The notes beneath the pieces were generated by a model. That model made no database searches, had not been told where the DNA came from, and saw only the letters and a program-made list of their open reading frames with translations. Shown here one piece after another: positions 16,455 to 52,747 of a stretch of DNA of 64,000 bases. How positions within the stretch are numbered: position 1 is the stretch's first letter; every line of letters begins with the position of its first letter. The stretch spans positions 197 through 64,196 of the forward strand of contig CALXUN010000007.1 in NCBI GenBank assembly GCA_944391705.1. Reading direction: 5' to 3'. The translations under genes were made by a program, and so were the position numbers. This stretch comes from an uncultured Alphaproteobacteria bacterium (GTDB lineage Bacteria; Pseudomonadota; Alphaproteobacteria; RF32; CAG-239).

Positions 16455-16464
16455 TCATCACAAT

Positions 16465-16495
16465 AAAAAATTCCGGATTTTCCGGAATTTTTTTT
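16465..16495. terminator. Bidirectional terminator between the pilT-like gene and the pil operon
   Basis: aaaaaattccgga-ttt-tccggaatttttttt between convergent genes. Confidence 0.8.
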
Positions 16496-16502
16496 AATTA
16501 TT

Positions 16503-17093: not shown

Positions 17094-17094
17094 T

Positions 17095-18213: not shown

Positions 18214-18227
18214 AATATATACCACTC

Positions 18228-19892: not shown

Positions 19893-19910
19893 TTTACGAC
19901 ACACCCCGCC

Positions 19911-22716: not shown

Positions 22717-22731
22717 GGTTTTTCCTTTCCG

Positions 22732-25114: not shown

Positions 25115-25198
25115 GTTTAATTCCCCTTTGTCATACTTCATAATATTTTCCAATCATACAGGCTGCAAATTAAATAATCAAGTTTTACAAAACACTTA

Positions 25199-27455: not shown

Positions 27456-27812
27456 ATGAAGTTTCTTAAAAATAATATCTTCACCCTGCTCGCCTTAGGG
27501 TTGGTGTTTGTCTTGGCAGTTACCTGCGATGCAAATGCTGGTAGTGTTGGCGGAGCCAGTGTTATGACAACAGCCAGACAGAAAGCGGTTGATGTGTTTA
27601 AGGCTGTTAAAACCATTGTTTTCGTAATTGGTGGTTTCGGTTTGGTAGCTTTAGCATTTCAGGCGATTTTCGGTAAAGTTAAATGGCCTTGGTTTGCGGG
27701 TCTTGCCGTTGGTCTGGCCATTCTGGCTGCTGCCGGGGCAATTGTTGAATATGCTACGGGTGATACTGATGCCGGTACGCAGGAGATGGGTGATACTTTT
27801 GGTAATATTTAA
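27456..27812 (+). CDS. TrbC/VirB2-like pilin 1 (probable major pilin)
   Basis: Signal peptide (ANA), two hydrophobic helices joined by AIFGKVKWPW; AGGAG RBS; upstream of virB3/virB4. Confidence 0.75.
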   Translation: MKFLKNNIFTLLALGLVFVLAVTCDANAGSVGGASVMTTARQKAVDVFKAVKTIVFVIGGFGLVALAFQAIFGKVKWPWFAGLAVGLAILAAAGAIVEYATGDTDAGTQEMGDTFGNI

Positions 27813-27828
27813 CACTCCGAAACAGTTA

Positions 27829-27859
27829 AGGGAAAAGCCATTTCGGCTTTTCCCTGTTT
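27829..27859 (+). terminator. Hairpin after the first pilin gene
   Basis: agggaaaagcc-atttc-ggcttttccct followed by gttt. Confidence 0.65.
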
Positions 27860-27997
27860 GGGAGGTTTTTGACCTGATTGGAAAATAAAGAAGCCGGGCT
27901 GAACAAAACATTGTACCTATTTAGGTTGCCGGAGTATTAATATAAACAGAGCGGTTTTCTTTAAGACGAATTTTACAGATAATGAAGGGGCTGATGG

Positions 27998-28351
27998 ATG
28001 TTGGGTGTAAATTTTAAGAAATATATTTGTGCAGGACTGCTGGCATTTGCACTTTCTTCGATTTTATGCGCAACAGATTCTTATGCCGTGTTTGAAAATT
28101 TAACCAGCACCGGCTGGGAAATTTTCGGCGGCATGCGTAAAATTATTTTCGGCGCCGCCGGCTTTGGTATCATTGCTATTGCCATCGGCAGTTTTTTTGG
28201 CGCCTTAAACTGGAAATGGCTGAGTGCAATTATTATCGGTTTGATCGTAATTGCCTTAACCGTTGGTCTGGTACAATATCTGGTAGCAGGTACCGGGGCG
28301 GATATCAGTGTTTCGGGCATAACCGATACATTGGTAAACGCGGAAGGATAA
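27998..28351 (+). CDS. TrbC/VirB2-like pilin 2
   Basis: Signal peptide, IIFGAAGFGIIAIAIGSFFGALNWKW; paralogous to pilin 1. Confidence 0.7.
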   Translation: MLGVNFKKYICAGLLAFALSSILCATDSYAVFENLTSTGWEIFGGMRKIIFGAAGFGIIAIAIGSFFGALNWKWLSAIIIGLIVIALTVGLVQYLVAGTGADISVSGITDTLVNAEG

Positions 28352-28382
28352 ATATTGATAACCTGATTTTAAGGAGGTGGTC

Positions 28383-29471
28383 ATGATGGGGAAAATAAAC
28401 AAGATGTTAGCTTTTTTATTGCTGGGGTTGATTGTATTTTCGCCGGCCGGCGCCTTTGCTGCCAGTGGTGATATTTTTACGATTATTTCCAATAAAATGA
28501 TCACCACCATCCAGGATGTTCGTAAAATTGTTTATATCATTGCCGGCTTCGGTTTAATTATGTTTGCCGTGCTGGCTGTTTTTAATAAAATCAGCTTTAA
28601 ACACCTTTCTTATATCATGATAGGCCTTTCGCTGTTATCGGTCATGATGCCGTTTATCAATTACTTTAGCGGTGCTAATTTGGAAGATTCCGAATATTCG
28701 TACGAAAATTTCATAGCCGGCGGCGATGCCAGCATTACAGGGAGTGATTTGGGCGATTTGACGGAATGTACGGGAGCTATCTGTCCCGATGGATTGGAAG
28801 GCGGTCTGGGAGATAATAATGGGCTTGCAGGATTGCCTAACGGTTTGCTGGATGATTTGAAATCTGATCTTCCGGATTTAGATTTGGCAAATATTACCAC
28901 GCCGTATGATAAGAATGGCTGCCGGACAGTAAACGGTGAGCAGGACTGTTGCGAAGGGACGGTTAAAAACGGCCAATGTAAAAAAAGCTTTAAGCAGACA
29001 TTTAAAGATATTGCAGAAACGGCAAAAAATATTATTGCCGGGGGAAAAAGCATTGTTGGCGCGGTGGATTCAGGCATCAATGCTGTTAATGCTGCTAAAG
29101 AAGGCATGGATAATATCGGTGATATTATTTCCGGTGATGGAAATGTGTTTGATAAACTAGGCGGCTTGGCAGGTACTGTTGGTTCTACGATAGGCTCAAT
29201 AACCGGTGGTACGGCAGCGGCTATGGGCGGCTTAGGCTCTGCTTTAGGTTATGCGGGAGCTGCCGGGGATGTTATTAAGGGAGATGACAGTACATCCAGT
29301 GCAATTGATAATTCCGGTGTCGGTGATGCTTTGGATGTAATTGGCAGTGGTGCCAACGATGTCGGCAACGAAGTTCGTGATTTTACAAGTACGACCGAAG
29401 ATTTGGCCGGATATGGCAATCAGGCTGTTAATATGGGCGAAAAGGTTAAAGATTGGTTTGGCAGAAAATAA
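28383..29471 (+). CDS. VirB2-like pilin domain fused to a Cys- and Gly-rich extension
   Basis: Signal AFA, IVYIIAGFGLIMFAVLAVFNKISFKH aligns with pilins 1 and 2; ~260-aa tail; AAGGAGG RBS. Confidence 0.6.
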   Translation: MMGKINKMLAFLLLGLIVFSPAGAFAASGDIFTIISNKMITTIQDVRKIVYIIAGFGLIMFAVLAVFNKISFKHLSYIMIGLSLLSVMMPFINYFSGANLEDSEYSYENFIAGGDASITGSDLGDLTECTGAICPDGLEGGLGDNNGLAGLPNGLLDDLKSDLPDLDLANITTPYDKNGCRTVNGEQDCCEGTVKNGQCKKSFKQTFKDIAETAKNIIAGGKSIVGAVDSGINAVNAAKEGMDNIGDIISGDGNVFDKLGGLAGTVGSTIGSITGGTAAAMGGLGSALGYAGAAGDVIKGDDSTSSAIDNSGVGDALDVIGSGANDVGNEVRDFTSTTEDLAGYGNQAVNMGEKVKDWFGRK

Positions 29472-29588: not shown

Positions 29589-29879
29589 ATGCGTGATATG
29601 ATTTTAAAAGCCGTGGCTCAGCCGCCCAAGATTTTTTGGGGGCCGGTGCTTCCTGTCGCATTAAATGTCGGCCTGCAGTTTCCGCTCATGTTTATGATGA
29701 TTGGTGTTGGCGACATGAATCCTCTCTTTTTTATCTGTACGATTTTACTGGCACATGCTGCCATTGTTTTGGCCGGTACCCGCGAACCGCATTTGTCAGC
29801 TATGATTCAGGCTTTTGGCCAGACTAACAAAGTTTCGAACAATTTGTATCCGGAAAGGGGAAATAAATTTGAACCCTGA
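29589..29879 (+). CDS. virB3: VirB3-like protein
   Basis: KAVAQPPKIFWGP, two TMs, LAH...REPH; overlaps the virB4 start. Confidence 0.75.
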   Translation: MRDMILKAVAQPPKIFWGPVLPVALNVGLQFPLMFMMIGVGDMNPLFFICTILLAHAAIVLAGTREPHLSAMIQAFGQTNKVSNNLYPERGNKFEP

Positions 29880-32301
29880 TTTTGACTTTTTTACAATGTT
29901 TGTTGAAGGCTTGAGCAATGTAGAAGTTGCCGTGGCCATCATAGGTTTTATCTCGGCGGCAGCATTTGCCGTGCTTCTTTCAACCAAATTCGGTTCCTGG
30001 GTGCTGCCACAACCGAGAGAATCTCGCGTATCTGACTTTTTGCCTTTTGCCAAGCTTTTGGAAGATGGTATGACAATTCGCTGTACCAACGGGTCTTATG
30101 CGCGGGTTTTCCGTATAACCGGCATGGATTTATCTTCGGCAACGCCGGAGAAGGTTTATTCTATGATGGAGGCTCGGAAATCCTGGATTGATAACCTTTC
30201 GGAATTGCAAATCGTCTGTCGGGTTATAACGCTTCGTGAGCGCAGTGAAATGGAAGACGAACAGGGGGACTTCCAAAATGAGCTGTTGGAAAAAGTTTCC
30301 AAGGTTTGGGCGGAAAACATGAGCCGGATTTATACCAACCGGCATTATGTGGTTTTATCGGTTATTGACCGTAAAGATGCTTTGAAAGATTTAAACTATG
30401 CCAGTCAATCATTGATTGCAACTTTAGGTGAGTATGGCGTATCGCAAATGTATGAAGCGCCGGACAGCCCTGCAACAGATAGTCCTTTGTATGTTTTCAG
30501 CCGTTTATGCAGCCCCGTTTCCAAACCTGAGCCGAAAATCCGCAATGCCGAAGGGGCAGAATTAAATGAAATGCTTACATCTGATCATATACATTTCACA
30601 CGCGAGCAGGGAATTATCCGTTTCTTTTCCGGAGATAAAGAACTTTATGAAATAGCCATGGGTATTCGCACCACGGGTGATTTTATGGATGAAAGCATGA
30701 TTGTCTCACTGCTTTCGATTGACTGCGAATTAGTCTTAATGCACAACATCCGCCCGATTTTCAAGCCTCAGGCACGGATGATACTGATTCAGCAACAAAG
30801 AATGGCGGTTTTAACGAGCTTTTCACCGGAAGTCGTCAATCAATACAGCCAGGCGCTGTCCACCATTGAGGATAGCGATGCTGATTATCAGGCTTTAACT
30901 GAGTATTCCATGACGGTTTTGTTAAAAGGTTCCAGCAAAGAGGAGTTGGATTTCGGAGAAGCTGAAGTGCAGCGTATTTGCCGCAGTTTCGGCGTGACGC
31001 CGGTTCGCGAAGGCTGGGTGGCTCAGGCAACGTTTTTCAGCCAGTTTCCGACATATGACACCTATCCGAGAACTTACCGTTATTTATCGCGGATTGTTGC
31101 ACTGGCAATTTCTTTTGATAAACCGGCGGAAGGCTTTAATAAAAGCGACTGGGGGCCGGGAGCAATTACGGTTTTCCGGACGATGTCCGGTTCGGCATAT
31201 CGTTTTCAGTTCCATGTTTCTTCTGAAGAATCAGCCGTGGCACACTGTTGTATTATCGGACCGACCGGCCAAGGTAAAACGACATTGCTGACATTTTTGG
31301 CAGGACAGGCCATGCGTCACAGTGATTTGAAAGTGTTTTTCTTTGACCGCCACCGCGGTGCGGAAATTTTTACCCGTGCCATCGGCGGGGCGTATGTCGG
31401 CTTTGACGGTGATAATAAGAATGTATCGCTTAATCCGTTTGATGCGGATAATACGCCGAACAACAGAGCCTTTCTGCGCCGCTGGATGAAATCTATTACT
31501 TTGGCAGATGATGCGCTTTCCGAACGTGAAATTGCCCGCGCGGTTACAACGGCGTTTGATTATCTGCGGCCGGAAGAACGGATTATGAAAAACCTGTATA
31601 AGAGCTGTTTTTCACCGACCGGAACCATGCGTCGGGAATTATATCGTTGGATTAATCCGGATCAATACGGCAATATTTTCAATGCCGAAAATGATAGTCT
31701 GGATTTAAAATCCAAACGCTTTATGGCTTTTGATTTTACCCATATTTTTGAAGATGAAACCTTAGCGCCTGCCGTTATCAGCTACATTATGCACCGTATT
31801 CAGTCAGAAACCGGTGAAACCGGTGTTCCGTCCCTGATTATGATTGATGAAACGGCGCCGATGTTAAAACACCCGATGTTCAGGGATTATTTTATGATTG
31901 GTTTGCAAGAAGGCCGTAAAAAACGTCAGGCTTATTTGTGTGCTTTCCAACAGCCGAATATTATTGACAAGCTGGGTGTCGGCGAGGTTATCCGCGGTCA
32001 GTGCCAAACGGTTATTTTCTTCCGCAACCCGCAGGCAATGCCGGAAGATTATGCTACTTGGAATTTAACCCAGAGCGAGCTTGATTTTGTTTTTGGTAAA
32101 ACTTATCGTGATTTTCCGTATGCCATATTGTTATCGCGTCCGGCAACCGGAGAATCAGTAATCTTAGACGTCAATTTAGGCGCATTAGGCCCATACTTAA
32201 AGCTCTATAACTCCGGCCGGAAAAATGTTTTACTGGTTGAAGAGCTGATAAAAGAATATGGCGAAAACAACTTTGTTACAAAATATTTAAATATGGCTTA
32301 A
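29869..32301 (+). CDS. virB4: VirB4 family T4SS ATPase
   Basis: YRFQFH, HCCIIGPTGQGKTTL, FFDRHRGAEIF..A.GG.Y, LNPF, IMIDE, RKK...FQQP. Confidence 0.9.
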   Translation: MNPDFDFFTMFVEGLSNVEVAVAIIGFISAAAFAVLLSTKFGSWVLPQPRESRVSDFLPFAKLLEDGMTIRCTNGSYARVFRITGMDLSSATPEKVYSMMEARKSWIDNLSELQIVCRVITLRERSEMEDEQGDFQNELLEKVSKVWAENMSRIYTNRHYVVLSVIDRKDALKDLNYASQSLIATLGEYGVSQMYEAPDSPATDSPLYVFSRLCSPVSKPEPKIRNAEGAELNEMLTSDHIHFTREQGIIRFFSGDKELYEIAMGIRTTGDFMDESMIVSLLSIDCELVLMHNIRPIFKPQARMILIQQQRMAVLTSFSPEVVNQYSQALSTIEDSDADYQALTEYSMTVLLKGSSKEELDFGEAEVQRICRSFGVTPVREGWVAQATFFSQFPTYDTYPRTYRYLSRIVALAISFDKPAEGFNKSDWGPGAITVFRTMSGSAYRFQFHVSSEESAVAHCCIIGPTGQGKTTLLTFLAGQAMRHSDLKVFFFDRHRGAEIFTRAIGGAYVGFDGDNKNVSLNPFDADNTPNNRAFLRRWMKSITLADDALSEREIARAVTTAFDYLRPEERIMKNLYKSCFSPTGTMRRELYRWINPDQYGNIFNAENDSLDLKSKRFMAFDFTHIFEDETLAPAVISYIMHRIQSETGETGVPSLIMIDETAPMLKHPMFRDYFMIGLQEGRKKRQAYLCAFQQPNIIDKLGVGEVIRGQCQTVIFFRNPQAMPEDYATWNLTQSELDFVFGKTYRDFPYAILLSRPATGESVILDVNLGALGPYLKLYNSGRKNVLLVEELIKEYGENNFVTKYLNMA

Positions 32302-32385: not shown

Positions 32386-34197
32386 ATGAACAAAAAGCAA
32401 TCTTTCAAAATTTTTTGTTTAACCTGTACGGGTATGCTCATGCTGGCTTTACCGGTAAAAGCGCAATGGCCGACGCTTGATTTATCGCAGGTAACCAACA
32501 TGATTAATGGATGGACATCCCAGATTGAATCAACATCTTCTACCATCCAATCGACATTATCTGTTGGTAATATTCAACAGCAGCTCGGGGATGCTATCGG
32601 CGGTTTGTCAAAATTTACCGACGCCAAAGAAAAAGCTGAAAAATTGGCAGAAAAAGTAGAAAAGCAGAAAAAGCGCGCTGAAAAATTAATAGAATTAAAG
32701 AAGAAGTTTGAAGAACAGGTAGAAAACGCCAAAAAATTTGCGGATAATGTCAAATCAGAAGTAAATAGCGTCGTTGATGCCGGCAAAAATTTATATGAAG
32801 AAGGCATGGAAATTTATGAAGAGGGAAAATCTATTTACGATGAAGGCATGGATATGTATGAAGAAGGGAAAGCTCTTTATGAAGAAGGAAAAGAAACAGT
32901 AGATGCTTTTCAAGATGTCATAAATGGCGGAGAATCTGCTACGGAAACAAATAGCGGTGATATAACAACGGAAAACGAAGAACAGCTCACCGAAGAAGAA
33001 ATTATGGACAGCGAGGCTTTAGACAATGAAGCGATTGCGGATTTGATTTCTGATGAAGAATTTTCCGAAGGAAGCTGGAGTGGTGAAGGCGGATATTTTG
33101 GAACAGAGGCAGAATTTTCCGAAGCAGGTGTTGATACGGCATTGCCGACAATTTCCGGGGAAACCTTATCTGTCGAAGAAGAAACGCTTATCGGCCGTCA
33201 GCCGTTTGCAAGTGGAAATTCAGAGGGAAAAAATGCGGTTTCGGATGAAACGCAAACATCGGAAGCTGCATCCAAAGGTGTTTTAACAACCAGTGGAATT
33301 AGTGCCGTTAAAACGGGTGTGGAAACTGTAAGTCCGACTGTTTCCAAAGAGTTAACCACTTCAGATGACAAAATTTCTGTTAAGACAAACGGAATATCAT
33401 CGACGTCAATCAAAGAAACCCCGGTACGCCGTGCTTTTACAACGCAGTCTGCTACAATGAAGAACACATCAGTAGAAACATCGGCGAAAGAATCTGATTT
33501 GTCAGCTAAAACAGCTGTGCAACCGGCAGTCAATTCGGTATCTGCTTCCGGGGCGGCTGTTTTGAAATCAAGTCCGGTTTCTGCGGAAACATCGGCCAGT
33601 TCCGTTTCACCGGCCAGTTCCGTTTCAGAAATAAAGACAGCACCTGTACGCCGTGCGTTTACGACATCTTCAGCTGATTTCTTGTATCAAGCCAGACAGC
33701 CAATGGCTTTTGCACAAACAACACCTGTGACCTTTAAAACCGGAACCAATAATGACGGCAAATTCATTTATTCGGATATTATTGCCAATAAATGCAGTAT
33801 AAATTTCGATGAAGTTGATGAAGAAAAAGTAATAGAATGCGTTAAAACCTGGGTTTTAGGTATGAATGATGCCAATGCCGAAACAGCGACAGACTGGAAA
33901 AACGAGTATAACAAGGCCAAGCGGGATCATGTCGCGGCAGATTTGGCTATGGCGCTGACGCAAAAAAACTATTCGGCATCATTTGATACGGAGGTTGCCG
34001 ATGATTTAGACAGCAAATCGGAAGCCTTAACCAACGAGCGTGAAGAAATTTCTTTTGTCGGCAAAGTCACTCAGACCAATCAGGAAGTCATTATTCGCTT
34101 GATGGAAGCTATGACCGGACAGGCCATAACGGAAGCCTGGTCAGCGATAGGAATCATGGATAAAGATTATTATGATGAGGAAGAGACCGATGAATAA
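32386..34197 (+). CDS. Secreted protein with VirB5/TrbJ-like N-terminus, heptad repeats and Ser/Thr linker
   Basis: VKA|QWPTLDLSQV start, coiled coil, acidic and S/T-rich middle, helical C-terminal domain; directly after virB4. Confidence 0.5.
   Translation: MNKKQSFKIFCLTCTGMLMLALPVKAQWPTLDLSQVTNMINGWTSQIESTSSTIQSTLSVGNIQQQLGDAIGGLSKFTDAKEKAEKLAEKVEKQKKRAEKLIELKKKFEEQVENAKKFADNVKSEVNSVVDAGKNLYEEGMEIYEEGKSIYDEGMDMYEEGKALYEEGKETVDAFQDVINGGESATETNSGDITTENEEQLTEEEIMDSEALDNEAIADLISDEEFSEGSWSGEGGYFGTEAEFSEAGVDTALPTISGETLSVEEETLIGRQPFASGNSEGKNAVSDETQTSEAASKGVLTTSGISAVKTGVETVSPTVSKELTTSDDKISVKTNGISSTSIKETPVRRAFTTQSATMKNTSVETSAKESDLSAKTAVQPAVNSVSASGAAVLKSSPVSAETSASSVSPASSVSEIKTAPVRRAFTTSSADFLYQARQPMAFAQTTPVTFKTGTNNDGKFIYSDIIANKCSINFDEVDEEKVIECVKTWVLGMNDANAETATDWKNEYNKAKRDHVAADLAMALTQKNYSASFDTEVADDLDSKSEALTNEREEISFVGKVTQTNQEVIIRLMEAMTGQAITEAWSAIGIMDKDYYDEEETDE
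32794..32898 (+). repeat. Five 21-bp degenerate repeats (YEEGxxx heptads)
   Basis: YEEGMEI YEEGKSI YDEGMDM YEEGKAL YEEGKET. Confidence 0.85.
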
Positions 34198-34858
34198 GCT
34201 TTTTTTAATAATACTTTGTATTATCGGCTTGGGAATAACTCTTCCGGCGCAAGCAGATATTGAATCAATAAGTGCGGCAATTAAGGGCGGCTATACCAAT
34301 GTTCAGGCGCAGCTTAAAACTGTACAGGATGCGGCAGATTCTGTGACGAAACTAAAGGATACTGCCATTCAGGGTGTTACCGGGATTATGGGAAACATAA
34401 ATGAAATTGTTGATACGGCAACCAATCCGACTTCTCTTATAGGCGATGTCAAGACATCTGTCATGGGGGGCTTAAAAGATGCTTTTGATGGTTCAAAAAA
34501 TGAAGACGAATTGGTCGAAAATGTTACTGAAAATTATACCCGGGTATTTGGTGCCGAAAACAGCATTACCGAAGCCAAAAAACTACAGGCTACAATTAAT
34601 AAAAACATGGGCGAAAACGCGGCAACTCTTTACGGACGAACGCTGGTACTGCGGCAGGAATTGATGAATGAAGAGAATCCCGAACATTCCCTGGAAACAA
34701 TTCAGGAGGCTTTACAGGCCAGCAATGAGATGGTCATTACCTCCTTAAGGCGCTGGAATAAGATTTTGGAAATGCAGGCCTACATTAATGAATATAAAAA
34801 TTCAGTTGCCATGCAGAATTTCACCCGCAATGCGGAGGATACCGCCGATGAAGAATAA
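34190..34858 (+). CDS. Secreted helical protein, T4SS-associated
   Basis: Signal peptide AQA|D; overlaps both neighbours (translational coupling). Confidence 0.6.
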   Translation: MNKLFLIILCIIGLGITLPAQADIESISAAIKGGYTNVQAQLKTVQDAADSVTKLKDTAIQGVTGIMGNINEIVDTATNPTSLIGDVKTSVMGGLKDAFDGSKNEDELVENVTENYTRVFGAENSITEAKKLQATINKNMGENAATLYGRTLVLRQELMNEENPEHSLETIQEALQASNEMVITSLRRWNKILEMQAYINEYKNSVAMQNFTRNAEDTADEE

Positions 34859-36143
34859 AGTTAAGAAAATAGTAATTATAATCGGTTGCTTTTTTGTAAT
34901 TGGCAATACGCAAGATGCACTGGCACAAATCAAATTTGGCACATCAGAAACGGCCGGGGCAATAATGAGTAATATTCAAAAGGCTGAGGAGTGGGTGCAA
35001 AATCAGGTCAACACGGCTTCACAGAAAATGCAGGAACTGATAACCGGGCCGAAAATTCAGGCGGCTATTGAAAAAATCCGGGCTTTAAAAGAAAGTATTA
35101 CAGCAGCAGCAAATGAAATCAAAGATGCTTACGACGACGTTTCAGGAAGCATTGATGCGGTTTCTGATAATATAAACGAAACCGTTGCCGGCATTAATGA
35201 ACAGGCAGATCAGATAACCGGTGAAGTTGATAATATAACCAGCGAAGTTGATAATCTAAAACAAACAGATGTCGGTACGGCGGCAAATTTGACCATGCAG
35301 TTGGCAGATATTAATCAACAGATAGAGGATAGGAAAACGGCAATTTCCGAAGAAGTGGCAGCCAAGGCGCAAGCGGCACAAGATAATTATGCCACCTTAC
35401 AGGCTATGTATGATGCTGCGGAAGATGAGGCGGATAAGGCTGTGATTTCTTCAGAGCTGGAAACTCTTACAGGAGAAATGGAGGAATATAATACCCTTCT
35501 TGAACAATTTGAAAATAATCAAGGAGATGATTATCTGAATAGTGACAGCGAGTATCAGGCTTTAATTGCCCAGCGTGACGATATAGAGGCGCAATTAGGA
35601 GATATCAGTGTCGCTGCTGCTGATTTTGCGGCGACAACCATCAAAAGCCTTTTAAGCAAAAATGATGCCGAAAAGCAGGAAGAATATAATAAAGTTATTA
35701 CCGAAAACTTCCTTAAACAAGATGAAGCAAATACGGCAGAAAATGTTGCCCGGATTATGAAACATCGCCGGGAAGTTTTTAAAGAGGATATTGCACATGT
35801 TTTATATACGGCAATTAAGCTGAAACTTCAGTTGGATGAAGATTTGGAACGTATCACGACCAAACAGGAAAATATGGCGGCTGCCGATTATAAAATGACA
35901 GCAGGAAATATGCTGGTTGAACAACGGATTGAAGATATCAAAATTTTATATAATTATACCAACTTGCTGATTGCCGATTTGCGCTTGAAAACGTCGCAGA
36001 ACATGCTTAATCAGGATCATCGGTTGAAAAATTATGATAAAAATCCGGCAGCACTTAATTTGGATAATTATATTTTTACCGAAGATGATATTCCTTCAGA
36101 TGAGGGGCAAAAAAGCTTTTTGGATTCTGTAACGGCAGATTGA
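34848..36143 (+). CDS. Secreted acidic coiled-coil protein, T4SS-associated
   Basis: Signal peptide ALA|Q, long heptad pattern; GGAGG RBS. Confidence 0.6.
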   Translation: MKNKVKKIVIIIGCFFVIGNTQDALAQIKFGTSETAGAIMSNIQKAEEWVQNQVNTASQKMQELITGPKIQAAIEKIRALKESITAAANEIKDAYDDVSGSIDAVSDNINETVAGINEQADQITGEVDNITSEVDNLKQTDVGTAANLTMQLADINQQIEDRKTAISEEVAAKAQAAQDNYATLQAMYDAAEDEADKAVISSELETLTGEMEEYNTLLEQFENNQGDDYLNSDSEYQALIAQRDDIEAQLGDISVAAADFAATTIKSLLSKNDAEKQEEYNKVITENFLKQDEANTAENVARIMKHRREVFKEDIAHVLYTAIKLKLQLDEDLERITTKQENMAAADYKMTAGNMLVEQRIEDIKILYNYTNLLIADLRLKTSQNMLNQDHRLKNYDKNPAALNLDNYIFTEDDIPSDEGQKSFLDSVTAD

Positions 36144-36153
36144 GGAGGGTATA

Positions 36154-39100
36154 ATGAAAGTAATTAAATTATATAAATGGGCCTTTATAATAAGTCTTGC
36201 CGTTATATTAAGAGCAGGTACAACGATGGCAATTGGTCCGTTTCCGCCCGGACCTTTAAGCCCGACGATAGACGCTCTGACTGATGCTGCCGAAACTGTA
36301 GAAGGAGCAAGTGCACAATTGTTGGCAGCTCAGGATAAATTGCAGCAGCTTCAGAGCGAGGTATTAAATCAAATCAAAAGCTATATTGAAAATTTGGGGC
36401 TTAATTTAAAAAATACATTGTTCAATAAAGAAAAAGGCGAACCGAATTTGGCCAGTGTCCGCACAATTGAGGAATGTAAAATTGCCGATATTACCGATGA
36501 AGATTCTGTGGCCGAAGCTTTTCATACTTTATTTTTAACTTATCCTGCGGATATTTTGGCAAAGTATCCGGAAAACCAGCGTGCCGTCAAGTTGGCGTAT
36601 AAGGAGAAAGCCGTTGAGTTCGGTAATGACGCCATGATTGAAATGTATATTACCGTACGGGACTTGGAAGAAAGAATGGAAGCCCTGAAAACGGAATATG
36701 ATGAGCTAAGCAAATGCTATGTTCAGGGTGAAAGTTCCAATGCCAGCAGTTGTGCCGGAGCATCATCCAGTGAAGAAGAGCTGGGTGTTTGGAGCAATTA
36801 TTATAAATTAAATGTTATTTATGATTCGATGCTTAAAATCACCGAAGAGCTGATGGCCTTAAAAGCACAATATGAGGTCGCTCAGGCTGTTTTGGGAGGA
36901 ATTGAACCGGTAGAGGAAAGCGAAGAAGAAAATTCCGGGGAAGAAAGTACAGGAGAAGACCAGGTCAGCCATAATGATATATTCCGTTATGTGCATACAG
37001 ACAGCAAATCATTTGCCCAAATGTTTTCAGCGATACAAACCTCTGCAACTAAGGACACCTCAATTGCCGCCGGGGCTTCAAATACGTCGTCTGCAGCCAA
37101 GACTTCAAGCACCTCTCTTACAACCGGAGTTTCAAAGGCATTGTCTGTCGAAAGCACCACAGAAACTCTCGGGGGCATGGTTTTAACCAACAAAAATGCG
37201 GTTGCTGAACAACCTGATCCTAATCAGGAAATTGTACAGGCAACATCTTATAACTTAAGTTCGCCTTTTGCCGGAACGGCTGAGCAGTTTCAATCTTCCA
37301 TGATTGCCAATAATGCCTATCAGACAGTTCAAAAAGCCTTAAAAGTTCACAATTTAAAACAGCAACTGCCGGAATATCGGAAAGTTTTTGTAGAATACAA
37401 TAAAATGAAAGCTTTGCATGAAAAAGCCATTGAACAGTTGGCCAAATCGGAAAATTGTGCCGTAAATTACATCGGTAAATATTATACAGATCCGGTTAAT
37501 GTATGGTATGGCGATGGCTGTAAATTGTCTGGTCAGACGATTATGTGTGATTCTGATAAAAGCCTGACATCGGAAACTTTGAAAAATCTGTTGCCGGGGG
37601 ATACTTTATGTGAAGATGACAAATCCAAAATCTGCAGCAGTTACGGTATAAACAGTTATTCTAGCCGAGGAGGGTTTTCCGGATGGCTGGTTTCGGCTTA
37701 TAAAGCGGCAAAAGCTGAAAAAACATTGGATTTAAATGAGGAAGACTTTGCAACCAGTATGACGGAAGAAGGGGTTGAGGCTGATGTATCAAATCTTGAA
37801 ACCTTGGGTGACCGCTACAGTACGGAAGCAAAAGAAGGAACGTCAGACAGCTCTTTGTTGCGCCCGAGTGATGAACCCAAGACGGAGGCTGCAATTCGTG
37901 AACAAAACCTGATTGCCTGGCAGATAGGGGCGGAAGCTGCTAAAGAAATAGGCGAAGACATGGCTTCCGGTTCGTCCGAATGGGGAACATTAAAAGCAAA
38001 ATATCCGTTGTGGAATGATGATAAATTAGTCTATCAACAATATTTGGATGAAAAATACGACAATATGCGCATCTACATTAAGACAATGGATTTACGACCG
38101 GCAATTGCCGAGCTGGCATTAGCAATCAGTGATCTTCTTCCCGGAGCGGGAACAATCGGAAATGTCAGCCTGAGCGATGTTAAAAATTATAATAATTCCG
38201 TATTAAATGCACTACTCCCCTCACTTAGAAATGATAAAGAAAATTCAACTGTCTTTGCTGATATTGAGCAAACCCAGGAACAAATAGATGATTCTATGGA
38301 AGAGCTTAGAAAATCTTTTAACACCGAAATGGCATTGCTTAACAATCAAAAAGCATCCCTTTACGAAAATCTGGATAATGCAAATATAGAATTAAATGAT
38401 TACAAAACGGCATACAATACGGCCATGCAGGATAAAGCGGCAGCAGAAGGAAACATTGAAGGCCAAAAGGTTGTTATTGAGATATCACAAGCCCGAAAAG
38501 CCAAGTCATCAGATGTGATGAGCAACTTTGAGTCAACGGCGGAAAGTTCCATTGGTGAATCTGATGAAACCATTACCCAGAAAGAACAAGAGGCCGAAAG
38601 TATTCTTCCGCAGATTGAAGATAAACGCGACAGTGTTGATTCATTAAGGCTCAACATGGAAAGTAAAGAAGAAGAAATAACCCGGGCCAAAAGCAGTTTT
38701 GCTGCAAATGCATCAAGTATGGAAGCTAAAGGTATATCAACAATTAAAGCCGCATTGTCTGATATGGAAAACTCAGCGGCCTCAAGCTCTCTTGGCAACA
38801 GCAGCTATCTTTCCGGCCTTTTGAATACAACGTCCTTAAATCGTGGTATGCTTAATTCTATTTTATCTGACATCATCGGAATAGCTGATAATGGTGCATC
38901 AAATATCCGTCAGCAGATTATTGACAGGATTAATACAGCGGCTGATCAGATAGAAAAGCTGCAGGAAAGCCGGTTTGATGAAGGTCGTTACAATGATATT
39001 GTTAATATTCACCGGCAAATGCTGGATGAGATTAAAAATCCGGATTTTGATGTAACAATAAGCGGCAGTTTCAATCTGGCTGCAATCTTAACGGCCAGTG

Positions 39101-40359
39101 CAGTGAAAAATTTGATAAAAGAAATTATTGTTGCCGAAATTTTTGAAGATATTTGCCCGAACAATGTCTGTTATGAAGCTGACAGCGATTATTTTGTCGG
39201 TTTGTCGCCTAAACCGCGCGATTTTATGGCACCGAAGATAATTACGTCAACACCGACAGCCCCCTTGCGCGAAATTGTGCATTTTGACACGGTTGATTTT
39301 GAGAACGTTGTTAAATCAGATACCTGGATGACAACGAGGTATGATTTCTTAAACCAGGGGCAGAATATGCCGGCAATCTGGCAGCGGATTTTAGGCGGCA
39401 AAGGGTTTGTTGAACGCGATATAGACGTTGAGGAAATATTATCACATAATACGGCCATATTGGATGAAATTAAAAAGGGAAACTACCCCTGTACGACAGG
39501 AAAGTACGATATTCAGATCCGTAACGGTGGTTATTATGTAACAGACGCAGCCGGCAACATTAATAAGTTTTGCTCGGATGTGCAATCAATAAGTATAAGA
39601 AGAAATGAAACAATCGGAAATGTCGGCTATAATGCTTATATTCGTTTTACAAACGGCGACAGTGCAATCGGAAGCGTATCTCAGGTGCCGGATGAAATGA
39701 TAACAAGCGAACTGGCAACAATTCTAACTTATAACAACGGCATAACATTTAATGATTACATAAAACAGATTATGGAGTTTTATGAAAATATGGAAACGGC
39801 CGATGATTTTAGTGAGGAAGATCAGGAGCGGGAAAAAATTTATAAAAAAGAATTGTTTACCCGTAATCAGTTTGGCAACTTCCTTGATTTTGTTGAACAG
39901 GAAATGCTCTTCCAGGATAATCTGGACCAGCTGGAAGTCAAAGTTGACAGTAATCGTGAAAAAATTACGGAACAACTGGTGGATGTCGGTTATACGCCGG
40001 AAGAAGATTTTGACCTTTCAGATGATAAAACTTATAATGAAATCATGGAAACATTGGATTCAACAAAGAATACATATGTAAAAGAAGCGATTTCTCTCAT
40101 TCAGTCAATTCAAAAATCAAATGATGTTGTTGACGAAAAAATAACCAAAATAAATAATATTACCGGGGCTCTGCAAATGGACAGCGATGAGCTGGTACAA
40201 TTAAATGACAATATGTCGGATGACAGTGAGCTGTCGGAAGAAATTAAAAGCAAACAGACGGATAATGCCGCACGTGATGAATATGACGAAGAGGCGCAAA
40301 GCGTTTATGAGGATAATCTAAACAGTTTTGAAGAACCTTATTGTGCAAATTACGATTGA
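36154..40359 (+). CDS. Large (1401 aa) secreted acidic protein, T4SS-associated
   Basis: Signal peptide, helical/coiled-coil segments, paired Cys, S/T linker; GAGGAGG RBS. Confidence 0.6.
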   Translation: MKVIKLYKWAFIISLAVILRAGTTMAIGPFPPGPLSPTIDALTDAAETVEGASAQLLAAQDKLQQLQSEVLNQIKSYIENLGLNLKNTLFNKEKGEPNLASVRTIEECKIADITDEDSVAEAFHTLFLTYPADILAKYPENQRAVKLAYKEKAVEFGNDAMIEMYITVRDLEERMEALKTEYDELSKCYVQGESSNASSCAGASSSEEELGVWSNYYKLNVIYDSMLKITEELMALKAQYEVAQAVLGGIEPVEESEEENSGEESTGEDQVSHNDIFRYVHTDSKSFAQMFSAIQTSATKDTSIAAGASNTSSAAKTSSTSLTTGVSKALSVESTTETLGGMVLTNKNAVAEQPDPNQEIVQATSYNLSSPFAGTAEQFQSSMIANNAYQTVQKALKVHNLKQQLPEYRKVFVEYNKMKALHEKAIEQLAKSENCAVNYIGKYYTDPVNVWYGDGCKLSGQTIMCDSDKSLTSETLKNLLPGDTLCEDDKSKICSSYGINSYSSRGGFSGWLVSAYKAAKAEKTLDLNEEDFATSMTEEGVEADVSNLETLGDRYSTEAKEGTSDSSLLRPSDEPKTEAAIREQNLIAWQIGAEAAKEIGEDMASGSSEWGTLKAKYPLWNDDKLVYQQYLDEKYDNMRIYIKTMDLRPAIAELALAISDLLPGAGTIGNVSLSDVKNYNNSVLNALLPSLRNDKENSTVFADIEQTQEQIDDSMEELRKSFNTEMALLNNQKASLYENLDNANIELNDYKTAYNTAMQDKAAAEGNIEGQKVVIEISQARKAKSSDVMSNFESTAESSIGESDETITQKEQEAESILPQIEDKRDSVDSLRLNMESKEEEITRAKSSFAANASSMEAKGISTIKAALSDMENSAASSSLGNSSYLSGLLNTTSLNRGMLNSILSDIIGIADNGASNIRQQIIDRINTAADQIEKLQESRFDEGRYNDIVNIHRQMLDEIKNPDFDVTISGSFNLAAILTASAVKNLIKEIIVAEIFEDICPNNVCYEADSDYFVGLSPKPRDFMAPKIITSTPTAPLREIVHFDTVDFENVVKSDTWMTTRYDFLNQGQNMPAIWQRILGGKGFVERDIDVEEILSHNTAILDEIKKGNYPCTTGKYDIQIRNGGYYVTDAAGNINKFCSDVQSISIRRNETIGNVGYNAYIRFTNGDSAIGSVSQVPDEMITSELATILTYNNGITFNDYIKQIMEFYENMETADDFSEEDQEREKIYKKELFTRNQFGNFLDFVEQEMLFQDNLDQLEVKVDSNREKITEQLVDVGYTPEEDFDLSDDKTYNEIMETLDSTKNTYVKEAISLIQSIQKSNDVVDEKITKINNITGALQMDSDELVQLNDNMSDDSELSEEIKSKQTDNAARDEYDEEAQSVYEDNLNSFEEPYCANYD

Positions 40360-40370
40360 TGGAATAAAAA

Positions 40371-41129
40371 ATGATTAATCAACTGGGAAACGGCAATGAG
40401 ACTTTGGCAATTACAGATGCTAATGCACCTAAGCAACAATTTGAATATATAACTGACCAAAGTCCGGAATTAAAGGGAGCTAAGGAAAGTTATTATTGCT
40501 GGTTATCACGCTTGGTGATTTTATTTGCCATATTGTCTCTGGGCTTTTTTGCCAGCGCATCGTTAGTGTTGTTTCGTTTGGCACCGGAAGTAACGGTTGA
40601 GCCGTTTCTGATTATAAGACAGGACAGTTCTGATACCATGGTTCGTTATGAGCCGATTGCACCGGATATGGCCTCTTCTAAACAAATGATGGAAAATTTC
40701 ATCCGCCAGTATGTTATTTTACGTAATACGGTTTTAAATGACGAACGGGAGATGCAGACGCGCTGGTTTGGCGGCGGGATGGTTGCATATATGTCATCTT
40801 CACAGGTTTTTGCTGATTTTAACAAAGGGCGTCAACAAATATTAAACCAATTGCTCCGGGATAAGATTGTACGCGATGTGGAAATTATTTCAATTGGCAA
40901 AGTGGGCGGCGAGAAAAGCCCGGTATGGAAAGTTGATTTCCGGACTTATGACTTATCGCCGGAAGTTCGAAATGAAGCAAGCGGCAGTTTGGTATTGGTA
41001 ACAAAATACTGGACGGCATCTGTAACGGCATTTTTTGTTCCGGAGCGTTTGTTTATGTCGAAACGTTTAATGAATCCGCTGGGTTTTACGGTAACAAGAT
41101 ATTCACAGACAGAAGTTGAAATTCTTTAA
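40371..41129 (+). CDS. virB8: VirB8 family protein (copy 1)
   Basis: Single TM, VEPFLI, FIRQYVILR, MSS.QVF, NPLGFTVTRY. Confidence 0.85.
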   Translation: MINQLGNGNETLAITDANAPKQQFEYITDQSPELKGAKESYYCWLSRLVILFAILSLGFFASASLVLFRLAPEVTVEPFLIIRQDSSDTMVRYEPIAPDMASSKQMMENFIRQYVILRNTVLNDEREMQTRWFGGGMVAYMSSSQVFADFNKGRQQILNQLLRDKIVRDVEIISIGKVGGEKSPVWKVDFRTYDLSPEVRNEASGSLVLVTKYWTASVTAFFVPERLFMSKRLMNPLGFTVTRYSQTEVEIL

Positions 41130-41276: not shown

Positions 41277-41465
41277 ATGTATAAAAAAGTTGTTTTACTG
41301 ATTGCCGTTTTGGTTTTGGCAGCATGCGGAATGTTTGGTACATATTATGAACCGGAACCTGTTGGTGTTGGTAAAGATGTCAATGAGTTGAAGCTTTCGC
41401 CATGCGCCTGTATTGAAATTGAGCTGCCCAAAACGCTTCCGGATTGGTTTGTAGCAACAATATAG
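41277..41465 (+). CDS. Small lipoprotein, VirB7-like
   Basis: 62 aa, lipobox LAAC, later SPCAC; between the virB8 copies and upstream of virB9. Confidence 0.6.
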   Translation: MYKKVVLLIAVLVLAACGMFGTYYEPEPVGVGKDVNELKLSPCACIEIELPKTLPDWFVATI

Positions 41466-41472
41466 GTGTAAC

Positions 41473-42222
41473 ATGGCAGATCGTTTAGGCATAAATAATA
41501 CAGAACAACGATTAATAGGTAACCGTGCCGGTATGCCGCGGCAGGTTGTGCGTAAACCTCAGCCTCGTAAGCGCCGTGATGAAGATGAAATAGTTGTCAA
41601 CGCCAGTGAGAAAAGGTATTTATGGACAGCAAGAGCTTTTGCAGTTGTTGTTGCAATCAGTTTATGCTGCAATCTGGTGTTGATTTTGGCAATTACCCAA
41701 CTGTTGCCGTTATATCGGATAGAACCGTTTCTTTTGACATTTGAAAATAAAGAAGAACAGGTCTATGATATTGTACCGCTTGCCAATATGGAAAATCAGA
41801 AAGCCATTACCGAGGTTTTCGTAAGAGAATATGTTCTGTTACGAAGCTCTTTTACCAATGATGTGCAGGAAATGGAATCCCGCTGGATGCCAGGCGGACC
41901 GCTGCAAGAGATGTCGTCATCTGCTGTTTATCAGGCTTTTATAGACCGGACGGCAACGCCTGCTTTGGATATTATCAGAACCAGAGGGCTTAACCGGATG
42001 GTTCGGATTATGACGGTTAACGAACTAAGCAGGGGGTTGTGGCAGGTAGAATATGAAACCAGGGACATGTATCCGGATTCGGCAGCGCCGGAAGTTAATT
42101 ATTGGACGGCTTCTTTAAGAGTTATGTATCGCAAAAAAATTGTTAAATATGGTGAACGTCTGAGTAATCCGGTCGGTTTTACCGTAACCAGATACTCACT
42201 TTCGCACAATGAAGCGGAATAA
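41473..42222 (+). CDS. virB8: VirB8 family protein (copy 2)
   Basis: TM, LLPL..IEPFLL, FVREYVLLR, MSSSAVY, NPVGFTVTRY. Confidence 0.85.
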   Translation: MADRLGINNTEQRLIGNRAGMPRQVVRKPQPRKRRDEDEIVVNASEKRYLWTARAFAVVVAISLCCNLVLILAITQLLPLYRIEPFLLTFENKEEQVYDIVPLANMENQKAITEVFVREYVLLRSSFTNDVQEMESRWMPGGPLQEMSSSAVYQAFIDRTATPALDIIRTRGLNRMVRIMTVNELSRGLWQVEYETRDMYPDSAAPEVNYWTASLRVMYRKKIVKYGERLSNPVGFTVTRYSLSHNEAE

Positions 42223-42247: not shown

Positions 42248-43876
42248 ATGAAACGTTATCTGACAAAAATATTTTCTGTTTTGACTTTAGCAGCAGTCCC
42301 GTTTTCTGTTAACGGACAGGCAACAATAGACAGCTTGAATCAAAATGCAGACCAGAGCCAGGGTATGTATCAGCCTATGAATATGGGGTATACGGGCATC
42401 AGCTCATTGGGAATGATGCAAAGTGCGTGGTTGGATCCGTTGCAAAATTTGGGTGAAGGACAAAGTAAACCGGCATATTCAAGATATTATTGGACGCCGG
42501 ATTTGGTGCTGCCGATACGCTTGCGCGAGGGGATGATAACGTTGATTAATTTTCCGGAATGGGAATTGGTAGAAGACGTATATATCGGTGACAGTAAAAC
42601 TTTTGATGGACGGATTTCAGGGCCGAGTACTTTGCTTTTATATCCGAAGCAGGGTGCTATGGTTGGCGTTGATACCAATATCATTGTTTTTGGCCGTTCC
42701 GGGAACAAATATGTTTTTTACGCCCGTAGTGAAGGTGTAAATACGGAACGTCTGACGAACTCAATTATTGATATTGAAGTGGTTGATGCAGGAAAAAATG
42801 GTAGTACCGCCGGAAGTCTTGGCAGCAGTTCCGGCGGTGGACGTCTCAATGCCAGTGCTTATCGGGGTGGAAACGACAAGTCTGTTGATTCAACATTTAC
42901 CAAGAGATACCAAAAAGAAGACTGGATTAAAAGCATTCCGCTTGATCCCTCCCAGTTCCGTTTTGATATTGAAATTTATGTTCCCAATCCCGATGATGTG
43001 GTGATTGCACCGGAGCGGGTCTGGCGTGATGACATTTTTACCTATATTGATTTTGGCGAGAGAGCTTTAAATATGGTACAGCGCCCAATTGTAACCCTGA
43101 TTGTTGAAAGGGTCGAAACACCGGTTGGTTTCAGAACCAAAGGGCCGAACAATCGTTTGATAATTGTTGAAGGCGTCGGAGATATGGTTTTACGTAACGG
43201 TAAACGCATCGTATGTCTTAAGTTGCGCCGGGATGATGCAGAAGGTTTGGAAAATGTAAGCTATGCCGAAACCAATGATTGGGATGTACCGCCGGCAATG
43301 CCGGGCAACGCCAAAGCCTCTTCGTCAGAAGGTAATAATTCCGGCACCGGCATGCTGGGATATGGTTTTGGAAGCAATGACGGCAGCCGTCGTGCTTCCG
43401 GGGCTTATGGTGCAGATGGTGAGGTTGTTGGTGAAAAAAGCTTCAGGATTGGTCCGGATGGAGAACTGCTGATGCCGGAATATGCTGATGGTGCCAATGA
43501 CGGCGTAGATTATAGTAAAATGCACCGTCTTTCCCGTCAAAATAAGACGGCAGCTGAAAATGACGATGAGCTTTTCTCCAAATATCGTTACGGCAGCGGC
43601 TTTGAAGGAGAAGATGCCGCCAGTATTTCTGTAGAACTTGGAACAGATGCTGATGTCAACAATTTGGAAAATTTATGGAGCGAATTGTCGAAAAAATATT
43701 CCTCGGTTTTAGGCTCGTATCAGCCGTTTTATTCGGTTGATGCGCCGGCAGACGGACAGGGTAAAGAGCTGTTTCATTTAAGAATAGGCCCGGTTCAGTC
43801 AATTGATGCCGGAGACAGCATTTGCAGCCAACTTGGCCGTAACGGTGTCTTTTGCAGTGTCGTCAGAGTGCAGTAA
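42248..43876 (+). CDS. virB9: VirB9/TrbG family protein with C-terminal SPOR domain
   Basis: Signal peptide, IRLREGMITLINFP..E, DTNIIV, IAPERVWRDDIFTYIDF..P, LRNG..VC; C-terminal VELG...W..L...FHLRIGP.....ICSQL...GVFCSVV. Confidence 0.8.
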   Translation: MKRYLTKIFSVLTLAAVPFSVNGQATIDSLNQNADQSQGMYQPMNMGYTGISSLGMMQSAWLDPLQNLGEGQSKPAYSRYYWTPDLVLPIRLREGMITLINFPEWELVEDVYIGDSKTFDGRISGPSTLLLYPKQGAMVGVDTNIIVFGRSGNKYVFYARSEGVNTERLTNSIIDIEVVDAGKNGSTAGSLGSSSGGGRLNASAYRGGNDKSVDSTFTKRYQKEDWIKSIPLDPSQFRFDIEIYVPNPDDVVIAPERVWRDDIFTYIDFGERALNMVQRPIVTLIVERVETPVGFRTKGPNNRLIIVEGVGDMVLRNGKRIVCLKLRRDDAEGLENVSYAETNDWDVPPAMPGNAKASSSEGNNSGTGMLGYGFGSNDGSRRASGAYGADGEVVGEKSFRIGPDGELLMPEYADGANDGVDYSKMHRLSRQNKTAAENDDELFSKYRYGSGFEGEDAASISVELGTDADVNNLENLWSELSKKYSSVLGSYQPFYSVDAPADGQGKELFHLRIGPVQSIDAGDSICSQLGRNGVFCSVVRVQ

Positions 43877-43891
43877 GCAGGCAGGATAAGA

Positions 43892-46800
43892 ATGAGCAAA
43901 GAAGTACTGACACATTCGGAAAGGTATGTACGTAAAACCAATCGTATTATTTTAATCGTTGGCATAACCTCTTTTGTTGTGTTTTTGTTCGGACTTTTGC
44001 TCTTGTTTTCCAGCGGTACGCCGACAACCGAATACGAAGAACCTGTTTTCAATGAAGATGATGATGCGCTAAATTTAGGCAATAATGATAATCCGTTATT
44101 AAATAACATTGAATTTGAAGAGGTCGACGAAGGTGAACTGCCGATTACGACAACGCCGAACCCGGTTAATATGGGGCAGGTTGTCTTAGGTACGGAAGCA
44201 AAAAATGTATTAACCATCGGAACAAACGGAAAAACGGCAATCCGGATAGTTTCTGTCAAACTGGCAGAACCGCCGTTTGAAGGTTTTACGTTCAGCGACG
44301 GATGCACCAGCGCCGAATTAAGAGGCAATCAAACCTGTAATATTACCATGAACTGGGTACCGGTTTCTGCAGGTAATGTGCAAAATAACTTCATTGTTTC
44401 CTGGCATGAAACAAATGTCAGCGCGCAAAATGCCAAGGCTCAGAAAGTTCCGGTTGACGGCAAGGCAATCAGCAAAGAAGATTGTAATTTCTGTGCAACA
44501 GCACCTGGAGCAGACTTGGGCGAAGGAATGGTTATCCGGGATGAAAATGGCAATATTATCGGCTATATTACCCCGGACGGCCGGGCGGTTGATTTAAATG
44601 GCAATGAGTTAGGAATAATAAATTCTGATAATCAGGTTGTTGACAAAGACGGCAATGTTATTGGCCGGATATCTGCGGACAATACCAAAACCCGCGTAGC
44701 CTATGGCCCGAACGGTGAGATTATAGGTTATATTGACGAAGATGGTTATGTGCGTGACGAGAACGGCAACATTATCGGCCGTGTCAATGAAGACGGATTA
44801 ATTGTCGATGAAAATGGAAATATTATCGGTGTTGCCGGTAACAAAAAACTGATTTATGATGAAAACGGTAATGTTATTGGTTATGTAACGGCAGATGGAC
44901 AGGCTGTTGATTTTAACGGTAATCCCATCGGCCATTTAAATGCCGACGGCAGTGTTGTTGATCAAAACGGTCAAAAAATCGGCAAAGCCGTTGAAGCCGG
45001 TTTTGTATATGATGAAAATGGCAATATTATCGGCCGGGTTTTGGAAGACGGAACGGTTGTCGATATGGAGGGAAATGTTATTGGCCGAATGAACGAAAAC
45101 GGTGAAGTCGTTGATATGAACGGTAATGTTATCGGTTATGTCAGTCGTCCCGGACAAACAGCCATTGATGAAAACGGAAATCCTCTGGGTGTTGTCATGC
45201 CGGATAATTCCATTGTTGACGAAAACGGTAATGTTGTCGGGTATGTTGATGAAAATGGCGATGCATATAAATTAACGAATGAAAAAATCGGTAAAAGCGG
45301 AGCTTCAAGGCGTCTGTATTATGACGAAAACGGCAATCCGATAGGCTATATTGACGAAAACGGCAATATTATTGATTTTAACGGCAATAAAATCGGCCAG
45401 ATTTTAGAAGACGGAACGGTTTTGGATGCTAACGGCAATGTTATCGGCAGGATGCTGGAAGACGGAACAATTGTTGATGCTAACGGCAATGTCATCGGCA
45501 AAGCCAGCGAATATGTCAACTTGGCTCTTGATGAAAACGGTAATGTTATCGGCTACATCAACAGCAAGGGCGAAGTAATCGGCAAGAATGGCGAGATTAT
45601 AGGCTATGTCGATAAAGATGGCAACATTATCAGTAATCAGGCGGTTAAAATCGGGGCTGTCGTCCGGACGGAATTGATTCCGGTAACACCGGCCGGAACA
45701 ATCCTGGGAACAGTTTCTTCAACCGGAGAAATCGTTAATGAAAAAGGACAAAGCTTTGGCCGGATTTTGCCCAATACATTGGTGCGCGATGCCAATGGCT
45801 CGAAAATAGTCGCGCGGGGTTTGCCAGGAGGTATGATTGTCGGCTGGGGCTGCAGCAATGTCGGCCAGCTTAATCAGGACGGAACAATCACCAAAAACGG
45901 ACAGGAAATGCCTTATAGTATTTACCCGGATGGCGGCGTATATAACAGCAACGGTCAGTTTCTCGGCAATGTCGTGCCGACGGGAAGGGTATTTGACCGG
46001 CAGTGTAATTATCTTGGCACGGCCAACGAACAAGGTATTGTCCAAACGGATAACAAGCGTTATGTCGGCTGTGTAAATCCTGACGGAACCGTATTAAATG
46101 ACAACGGCGATATCATTGGCAAAATAGCTCAATATAAAACAGCGGTTAATGCCAAAGGCGAGGTCATTGGCCAGATGACACCGAATGGAACTGTCGTATC
46201 CGGAGCAATGTTACCTGTAGGCTGTGCCAATGAAGACGGCGAAGTGTTTGATGAAGACGGGGCATACAGAGGAAATCTGGTTGATAAATTTTATGCCTTT
46301 GATTTGAACGGAACATATTTAAATACCTTTCAAAATGATGGCTCTTTGAACTTAAAACAATATCCGGATGCCCGCTTGTTTTTACATAAATATATTGTTA
46401 ACGGCAATAACAAAATAATCGGAATGGCGTTTCCGGAAAGAAACGTTATTGTTAATTCAAACGGAGACATATTGGGGCGCTTGTTTGCTGATGGAAATGT
46501 ATATGATGGCAAAGGGGTTGTGGTCGATAAAATTTTTGGTGACGGGTTAAGTTTTTATGCCGGCACGGCCGGAAAGCTTCTTCCTTTGAGTGCTGTTGTC
46601 AATAATGCTGGTCAGAAAGCGGGATTTATTAATCCGGACGGCCGTGTATTAACCCGTTTTGGGGAATATCTCGGTCGGGCGGATGCGAAAGGCAGATGGT
46701 TGGATGCTAAAGGCATTTATGCCGGAGGTACCGTTATCCCTGGCGCGGCTATCGGTTATGACGGTTCATATCTCGGGTATGTTAAAGCAAACGGAGAGGT

Positions 46801-47518: not shown

Positions 47519-47519
47519 A

Positions 47520-51758: not shown

Positions 51759-51775
51759 GAAAAAGGAAAGGGAAA

Positions 51776-52747
51776 ATGAGTACATTTACGGTTTTGGAAT
51801 CTGTTTTACGGCCCTTAGCCTACTGGTATAACCAGGAAAACATAGAGGAAGTGGCTATTAACCGCTCGGAGCAGATTTGGCTGCGTCTGCGTGGAAAAAG
51901 AGCTTATCCGTGGGTGATGTATAAAGATGAAAAACTAACCAAAGAATATTTAACAGATCTTTTATATATTGTTGCCAATACGTATGAATTGCCGTTTGAT
52001 CCGATTTCCGGTTCACCGGTCGTTTATGCGACCATCCCCGGTGATCATCGTTTTTCAGCCATAGCCGGGCGGAACGTGATGTACGATGAAGGGGATTTAA
52101 CCGGCGGGGTTGCTTTAACAATCCGTGTTCACAGTGATGACGTTGCTTTCGGTTTGGAAGATTATGGTTTGGCACAAGGAAAAGGTCTGCATAAAATAAA
52201 CCCTTTGAAACAAATTAAAGATCCGGAAGATCCGTATGAGCGTTTGTTGTTAAGCATTAAACGAGGTGATCATATTTTAGTCAGCGGGGCGACATCAACC
52301 GGTAAAACAACATTTTTAAACAACCTGCTTAAAATTCTGGATATTCATAAAAGAATAGTAACAATTGAAGATACACGCGAATTGTTGGTGCCGCACCCCA
52401 ATCGTGTTCACTTGGTTTTATCGCGTACCGAACAAACCAATGAAATGGATTATGCCAAAATCATTGACTTGGTGGTGCGTTTTACGCCGGATGCTATTAT
52501 CGGCGGTGAGATTTCGACCAGCAATGCCGGGGCGTTATGGGAGCTTATGGGCTCCGGTCACGATAACTGTCTGGCTACCATCCACGCCGAAAGTTCTGAG
52601 GCGGCGTATCAGGCTTTTACGGATCGTATTTTGCATACTTATCCGACAATTGACAGAGCCAAAACAATTGAAGAAATGCGTCACAAACTTCGTGTCGTTC
52701 AAATTAATCGTGACGGCAACCTGCGTGCAATTACGGAAGTTACGTAA
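51776..52747 (+). CDS. virB11: VirB11 family ATPase
   Basis: IEEVAINR, ILVSGATSTGKTTFLN, RIVTIEDTREL, RFTPDAIIGGEI, SGH..LATIHA. Confidence 0.9.
   Translation: MSTFTVLESVLRPLAYWYNQENIEEVAINRSEQIWLRLRGKRAYPWVMYKDEKLTKEYLTDLLYIVANTYELPFDPISGSPVVYATIPGDHRFSAIAGRNVMYDEGDLTGGVALTIRVHSDDVAFGLEDYGLAQGKGLHKINPLKQIKDPEDPYERLLLSIKRGDHILVSGATSTGKTTFLNNLLKILDIHKRIVTIEDTRELLVPHPNRVHLVLSRTEQTNEMDYAKIIDLVVRFTPDAIIGGEISTSNAGALWELMGSGHDNCLATIHAESSEAAYQAFTDRILHTYPTIDRAKTIEEMRHKLRVVQINRDGNLRAITEVT

Follow-up and report, generated by a model that had tools for sequence, protein, structure and literature searches.

The best-studied conjugative stalk of a type IV secretion system (T4SS) consists of five identical VirB5 subunits seated on five identical VirB6 subunits; a system multiplying both proteins makes the idea of a mixed stalk testable. 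In R388, where both proteins are homopentamers, the VirB5 pentamer has been modelled to dock on the VirB6 pentamer, start pilus growth and end at the pilus tip, a model called untested in the available text of the review (PMC12857230). The rvh T4SS of Rickettsiales, which has extended virB6 paralogues in tandem (Rickettsia has five, PMC2653234, and Anaplasma four, PMC7648143), is described as lacking virB5 in the available text of these sources and of a preprint (bioRxiv 10.1101/2025.08.29.673095), which calls the purpose of the Rickettsiales VirB6 duplications a mystery; rvh has been proposed to have originated in the killing of bacteria (PMC9352585, available text). The Ptl system of Bordetella is described as lacking both VirD4 and VirB5, with the toxin proposed as a VirB5 analogue (PMC12857230, available text). 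Here we describe a virB operon of an uncultured gut alphaproteobacterium of the RF32/CAG-239 lineage (GCA_944391705.1; 1.49 Mb, 37 contigs), found in a 64,000-nucleotide stretch of contig CALXUN010000007.1 (the window), in which four genes, A to D, probably descended from VirB5/TrbJ, stand between virB4 and virB8.

Results

A sequence-only reading of the window had reported four open reading frames (ORFs) of 603, 222, 431 and 1401 aa between virB4 (29815-32301) and virB8 (40371-41129), acidic, with start and stop codons that overlap or lie close together, and without a polytopic transmembrane region; all of this was borne out, and every motif that it had quoted was found in its place. All four genes lie on the forward strand. 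Gene A (32386..34197) specifies a signal-like N-terminus, a WPTLD motif and helix (residues 27-125), a variable low-complexity linker and a shared helical domain (residues 440-600, nt 33703-34185). Gene B (34190..34858) is a compact single unit of an N-terminal helix and the shared domain (residues 95-215), and gene C (34848..36143) comprises an N-terminal helix, a helical insertion and the shared domain (residues 262-412, nt 35631-36083). Gene D (36154..40359) begins with a unit containing a PTID motif and the shared domain (residues 27-257, nt 36232-36924), fused to a module of about 1,100 aa. A and B share 8 nt, B and C share 11 nt, and C and D are 10 nt apart; acidic residues (D+E) make up 14-18% of the proteins and basic residues (K+R) 9-10%. 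Each protein has a single, N-terminal hydrophobic stretch, the sole other Kyte-Doolittle peak being a marginal 1.51 at D975, and signal peptides were assigned from hydropathy and A-x-A ends. The description of all four as helical was upheld by a structure model for B only, and does not suit residues ~130-430 of A, which are mostly low-complexity linker. No Pfam or NCBIfam family matched A to D above cut-off. They are real, selected, fast-evolving genes, under purifying selection with fast divergence: across four close relatives, dN was 0.15-0.47 for the whole genes, falling to 0.07-0.26 in the cores of A, C and D, against 0.03-0.045 in VirB4, and dS was above 1 or saturated.

The helical segments that had been seen to recur proved to be one homologous domain, a conserved core of 120-150 residues in each of the four proteins. 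In all-against-all HHalign comparisons with deepened profiles, A/B matched at 98%, A/D at 88%, A/C at 86%, C/D at 71% and B/C at 62%, all five in one register, and B/D at 1%, while all 40 controls (reversed or other segments) stayed at or below 17%. The A/B value is partly circular, because iteration drew B members into the A profile; the profiles gave 44-47% before they were deepened. By these profile comparisons the family has four paralogous members with one helical domain in common: A, B, C and, of D, the N-terminal unit alone.

The proposal that this family is VirB5-like was supported by the shared domain, by a bridge to VirB5 through compact orthologues, by fold rank and by family-wide synteny; the case for descent combines moderate sequence and fold evidence. 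One compact orthologue, g1, gave full-length matches to the VirB5 profile and to PF07996, with 90% over 149 columns, a signal that depended on the N-terminal motif and was lost without it; a positive control collapsed likewise. Compared directly with VirB5/TrbJ, the cores of the window proteins reached 0-24%, so the link is transitive, via orthologues, while the N-terminal part of A matched TrbJ at 41% and VirB5 at 47%. Neither PF07996 nor TIGR02780 was matched above the curated cut-off by A to D or elsewhere in the genome, in which no other VirB5/TrbJ was found, and the best orthologue (1 of 21) scored 21.3 bits against a cut-off of 24.7. The modelled fold of B scored level with generic hairpins when compared with VirB5-type folds, and Foldseek returned no match at E ≤0.001. 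The C-terminal register relative to VirB5/TrbJ agreed between sequence and structure comparisons.

A to D resemble the VirB5/TrwJ/TraC/TrbJ minor pilins (PF07996, TIGR02780; R388 stalk, PDB 7O3V) in occupying the slot after virB4 in a genome that also encodes VirB2 and VirB6 partners, in the C-terminal helical hairpin in the same register and, in A and D, in a signal-like N-terminus that leads into a P(V/T)xD motif and helix. Among 44 relatives, the PxxD or P(V/T)xD motif was present in 40 A proteins, 27 D proteins, 2 B proteins and no C protein, while the hydrophobic N-terminus is present in all of A to D. They differ from those pilins in number, with four to six divergent copies rather than one, in the long insertions of A and C, in the fusion of D to an extra module, in the absence of any window protein at the family cut-off and in an unlinked virB6. 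In the closest outgroup to this VirB4 clade the arrangement is simply virB4, a single gene of 257 aa and virB6 (L212:3366-4885), possibly the single-copy ancestral state.

Membership of the VirB5-like family is limited in D to the first ~260 residues. The C-terminal module (37021..40359, forward strand) had no Pfam family and is encoded independently in a related taxonomic order, by a gene (g5) whose product has a signal-like N-terminus of its own and matched D segments at 97-99%. Windows of this separate protein gave at most 2% with VirB5, TrbJ and the profiles of the other four genes (g1-g4); D is therefore a VirB5-like unit fused to a second, secreted protein of no assigned family. Near the joint stands an internal FAQ motif (37012..37020, forward strand), and another stands in A (33709..33717, forward strand) at the place where the mature part of stand-alone domain homologues starts, after a signal peptide of their own, so that both lie near the point at which relatives begin a separate gene. 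These (L/M)AFAQ sequences resemble signal peptidase sites lacking a hydrophobic core, at gene-fusion joints. Their likeness is mostly by eye: a model of the A motif matched 24 A and 2 D proteins, and within the genome each model matched its own gene only. Internal processing of A and D at this motif is a guess.

The closest virB4 loci are labelled as coming from uncultured Alphaproteobacteria of gut and rumen, Ca. Scatocola and CAG:495 among them. D was present in 35 of 36 family genomes (the one without it is 59% complete) and in the one sister-family genome; as a query it matched none of 23 other genomes, two of which later yielded distant homologues. Of 80 virB4 loci, 58 span virB4 to virB8, with four genes between in 44, five in 4 and six in 10, the extra genes often being stand-alone copies of the A C-terminal domain with their own signal-like N-termini. 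In 20 further regions, picked by a match to D, the C and D cores were found in all 20, and the A and B cores in 18 each. Gene order is fixed and all four types are retained across genera and in a second taxonomic order; the synteny is family-wide. In one clade member (L166) virB4 is followed directly by virB8.

The idea that the four genes replace both virB5 and virB6 was not confirmed, as virB6 lies on contig C14 and virD4 on contig C1. Five membrane-protein ORFs stand in tandem on C14, the best of their TrbL matches reaching E 2e-8, and because of these virB6-like ORFs A to D are not virB6 substitutes; each has only one hydrophobic stretch, and none matched PF04610. The third ORF matches the N-terminal half of the others and the fourth the C-terminal half, which therefore gives four VirB6 units. 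This split VirB6 (L150:5403-7981, genome G000, C14) consists of genes of 270 aa (N-half) and 589 aa (C-half), and similar pairs occur in many genomes of the same genus. With one C14 VirB6 as query, every one of 24 family genomes gave matches, 3-5 per genome; per-genome numbers of VirB5-like (4-6) and VirB6 (3-5) copies are not one-to-one. The largest VirB6 paralogue (L150:7972-11412, G000, C14) contains an M23 peptidase domain (E 3e-17), which might open the cell wall in the place of VirB1 or attack the wall of a target. VirD4 is full-length (736 aa; PF02534, E 8e-56), and 23 of 24 family genomes yielded it, which removes the basis of the Ptl-like alternative, a supposedly missing VirD4, and rules against a VirD4-independent exporter of that type. 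A second, divergent VirD4 (27-39% identity) occurs in 8 of 25 relatives from the family and the order (G012, G015, G017, G019, G021, G022, G023, G037), and not in the window's genome.

Discussion

The multiplication of both stalk partners, the fixed order in which four VirB5-like types are kept and their tight coupling lead us to propose that A, B and C, together with the N-terminal unit of D, probably form a mixed tip on a mixed VirB6 platform of a chromosomal VirB/VirD4 system. Judging by hydropathy, the four proteins would be exported by Sec to the periplasm; by analogy with the R388 model, the paralogues would settle on the VirB6 ring, seed the VirB2 pilus and be carried outward at its tip. 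The variable linkers and the 1,100-aa module of D would face outward and touch a target cell, after which proteins recruited by VirD4 may be delivered.

VirB5-derived A to D might instead be used singly, as interchangeable homo-oligomeric tips, each paired with one VirB6 paralogue, in machines for different targets. The four VirB6 and four VirB5-like units of this genome would suit such pairing, as would the homopentameric VirB5 and VirB6 of R388 (PMC12857230, available text) and the extra A-type domain copies arising in some lineages, but the overlapping or close codons and the conserved order and retention of all four types suggest joint need, and the cores differ strongly among themselves; we regard single use as unlikely. 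It is likewise improbable that the proteins are a lineage-specific family of periplasmic helical scaffolds unrelated to VirB5, in which signal peptide, short PxxD motif and helical hairpin have converged. The weak direct matches to VirB5, the loss of signal without the N-terminal motif, the tie with generic hairpins and the Foldseek result would all be expected of such a family, yet the positive control fails in the same way without the motif, and the full-length matches of g1, the common C-terminal register and the operon slot argue for ancestry. Least credible is that A to D are Sec-exported substrates, assembled in the periplasm and expelled by the T4SS in the way that Ptl exports pertussis toxin, with the D C-terminal module as cargo. 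Signal-like N-termini, tight coupling, fast divergence, a module of no assigned family and the proposed analogy of the Ptl toxin to VirB5 (PMC12857230, available text) fit this, but VirD4 is present and conserved, the proteins carry VirB5-like signals and no enzyme or toxin family matched above chance level. The likeness to Ptl lies in signal-bearing genes inside or beside the virB operon; the difference, in the presence here of VirD4 and VirB5-like genes and the absence of a toxin family in A to D.

The system shares with rvh its tandem extended virB6 paralogues, a virB8-virB7-virB8 arrangement (virB7 here by lipobox and position only), several virB2 genes and components scattered on the chromosome. 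It differs in its VirB5-like A to D, whereas rvh, in the available text of the sources, lacks virB5 and has duplicated virB4 and virB9. Membership of rvh was rejected. The window VirB4, the one match in this genome, scored 203 bits on PRK13898 (cut-off 1050) and fell in a 30-row clade (SH-aLRT 99) apart from two genomes above that cut-off (quick tree, with long-branch warnings), which, by their gene order, are probably Rickettsiales. Because of the low score and the separate clade, the resemblance looks parallel.

No description of this system was found in the literature searched (subscription journals outside its coverage). More speculatively, and with less than even likelihood, it may be a vertically inherited, not yet described T4SS class across many uncultured small-genome alphaproteobacterial families, in which both five-fold stalk proteins became sets of different subunits: four VirB5 paralogues, one with a new 1,100-aa module, would make up an asymmetric tip seated on a VirB6 ring of mixed composition, the A and D precursors would be cut at the internal AFAQ, and VirB6 would have expanded in parallel to Rickettsiales, apparently independently and with its VirB5 partners kept. 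The mixed-tip reading offers a likely role for four core genes, unannotated until now, of an uncultured lineage common in the gut, and may point to a lifestyle that depends on contact. The housekeeping genes on either side and the presence throughout the family speak against mobility; the relaxase families PF03432 and PF03389 were not found in the genome (other relaxase families were not searched), and ComEC is present.

Other Features of the Locus

The operon, entirely on the forward strand, has the order virB2 (three genes), probable virB3, virB4, A to D, virB8, probable virB7, virB8, virB9, a beta-flower repeat protein, virB10 and virB11. The virB2-like pilin genes (27456..29471; 118, 117 and 364 aa) matched Pfam TrbC at E 1e-8, 8e-5 and 1.5e-3, and virB4 (29815..32301) matched TIGR00929 at E 2.5e-113. 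The probable virB3 (29589..29879, 96 aa) was assigned by position and hydrophobicity, without a family match, and the probable virB7 lipoprotein (41277..41462, 61 aa) by position and its LAAC lipobox. The two virB8 copies (40371..41129 and 41473..42222) matched PF04335 at E 3e-17 and 2e-20. The remainder (42248..52747) comprises virB9 with a SPOR domain, the 1208-aa beta-flower repeat protein, virB10 and virB11. Many beta-flower repeats occur in both the 1208-aa protein and the 1428-aa VirB10 (window 43892-51758), and L155 has a much longer version. The third VirB2-like pilin (window 28377-29471) has a long tail, with 364 aa here and about 126 to 2058 aa in relatives, and is possibly a pilin-adhesin fusion. 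Upstream of and divergent from the virB operon lies a type IVb pilus operon (window 15495-27025: bundlin-like pilin, PilO, PilP, secretin and TcpQ), together with a PilT-like ATPase; housekeeping genes stand on both sides of the two operons. T4SS genes adjoin pilus genes in L167 and L169 as well.
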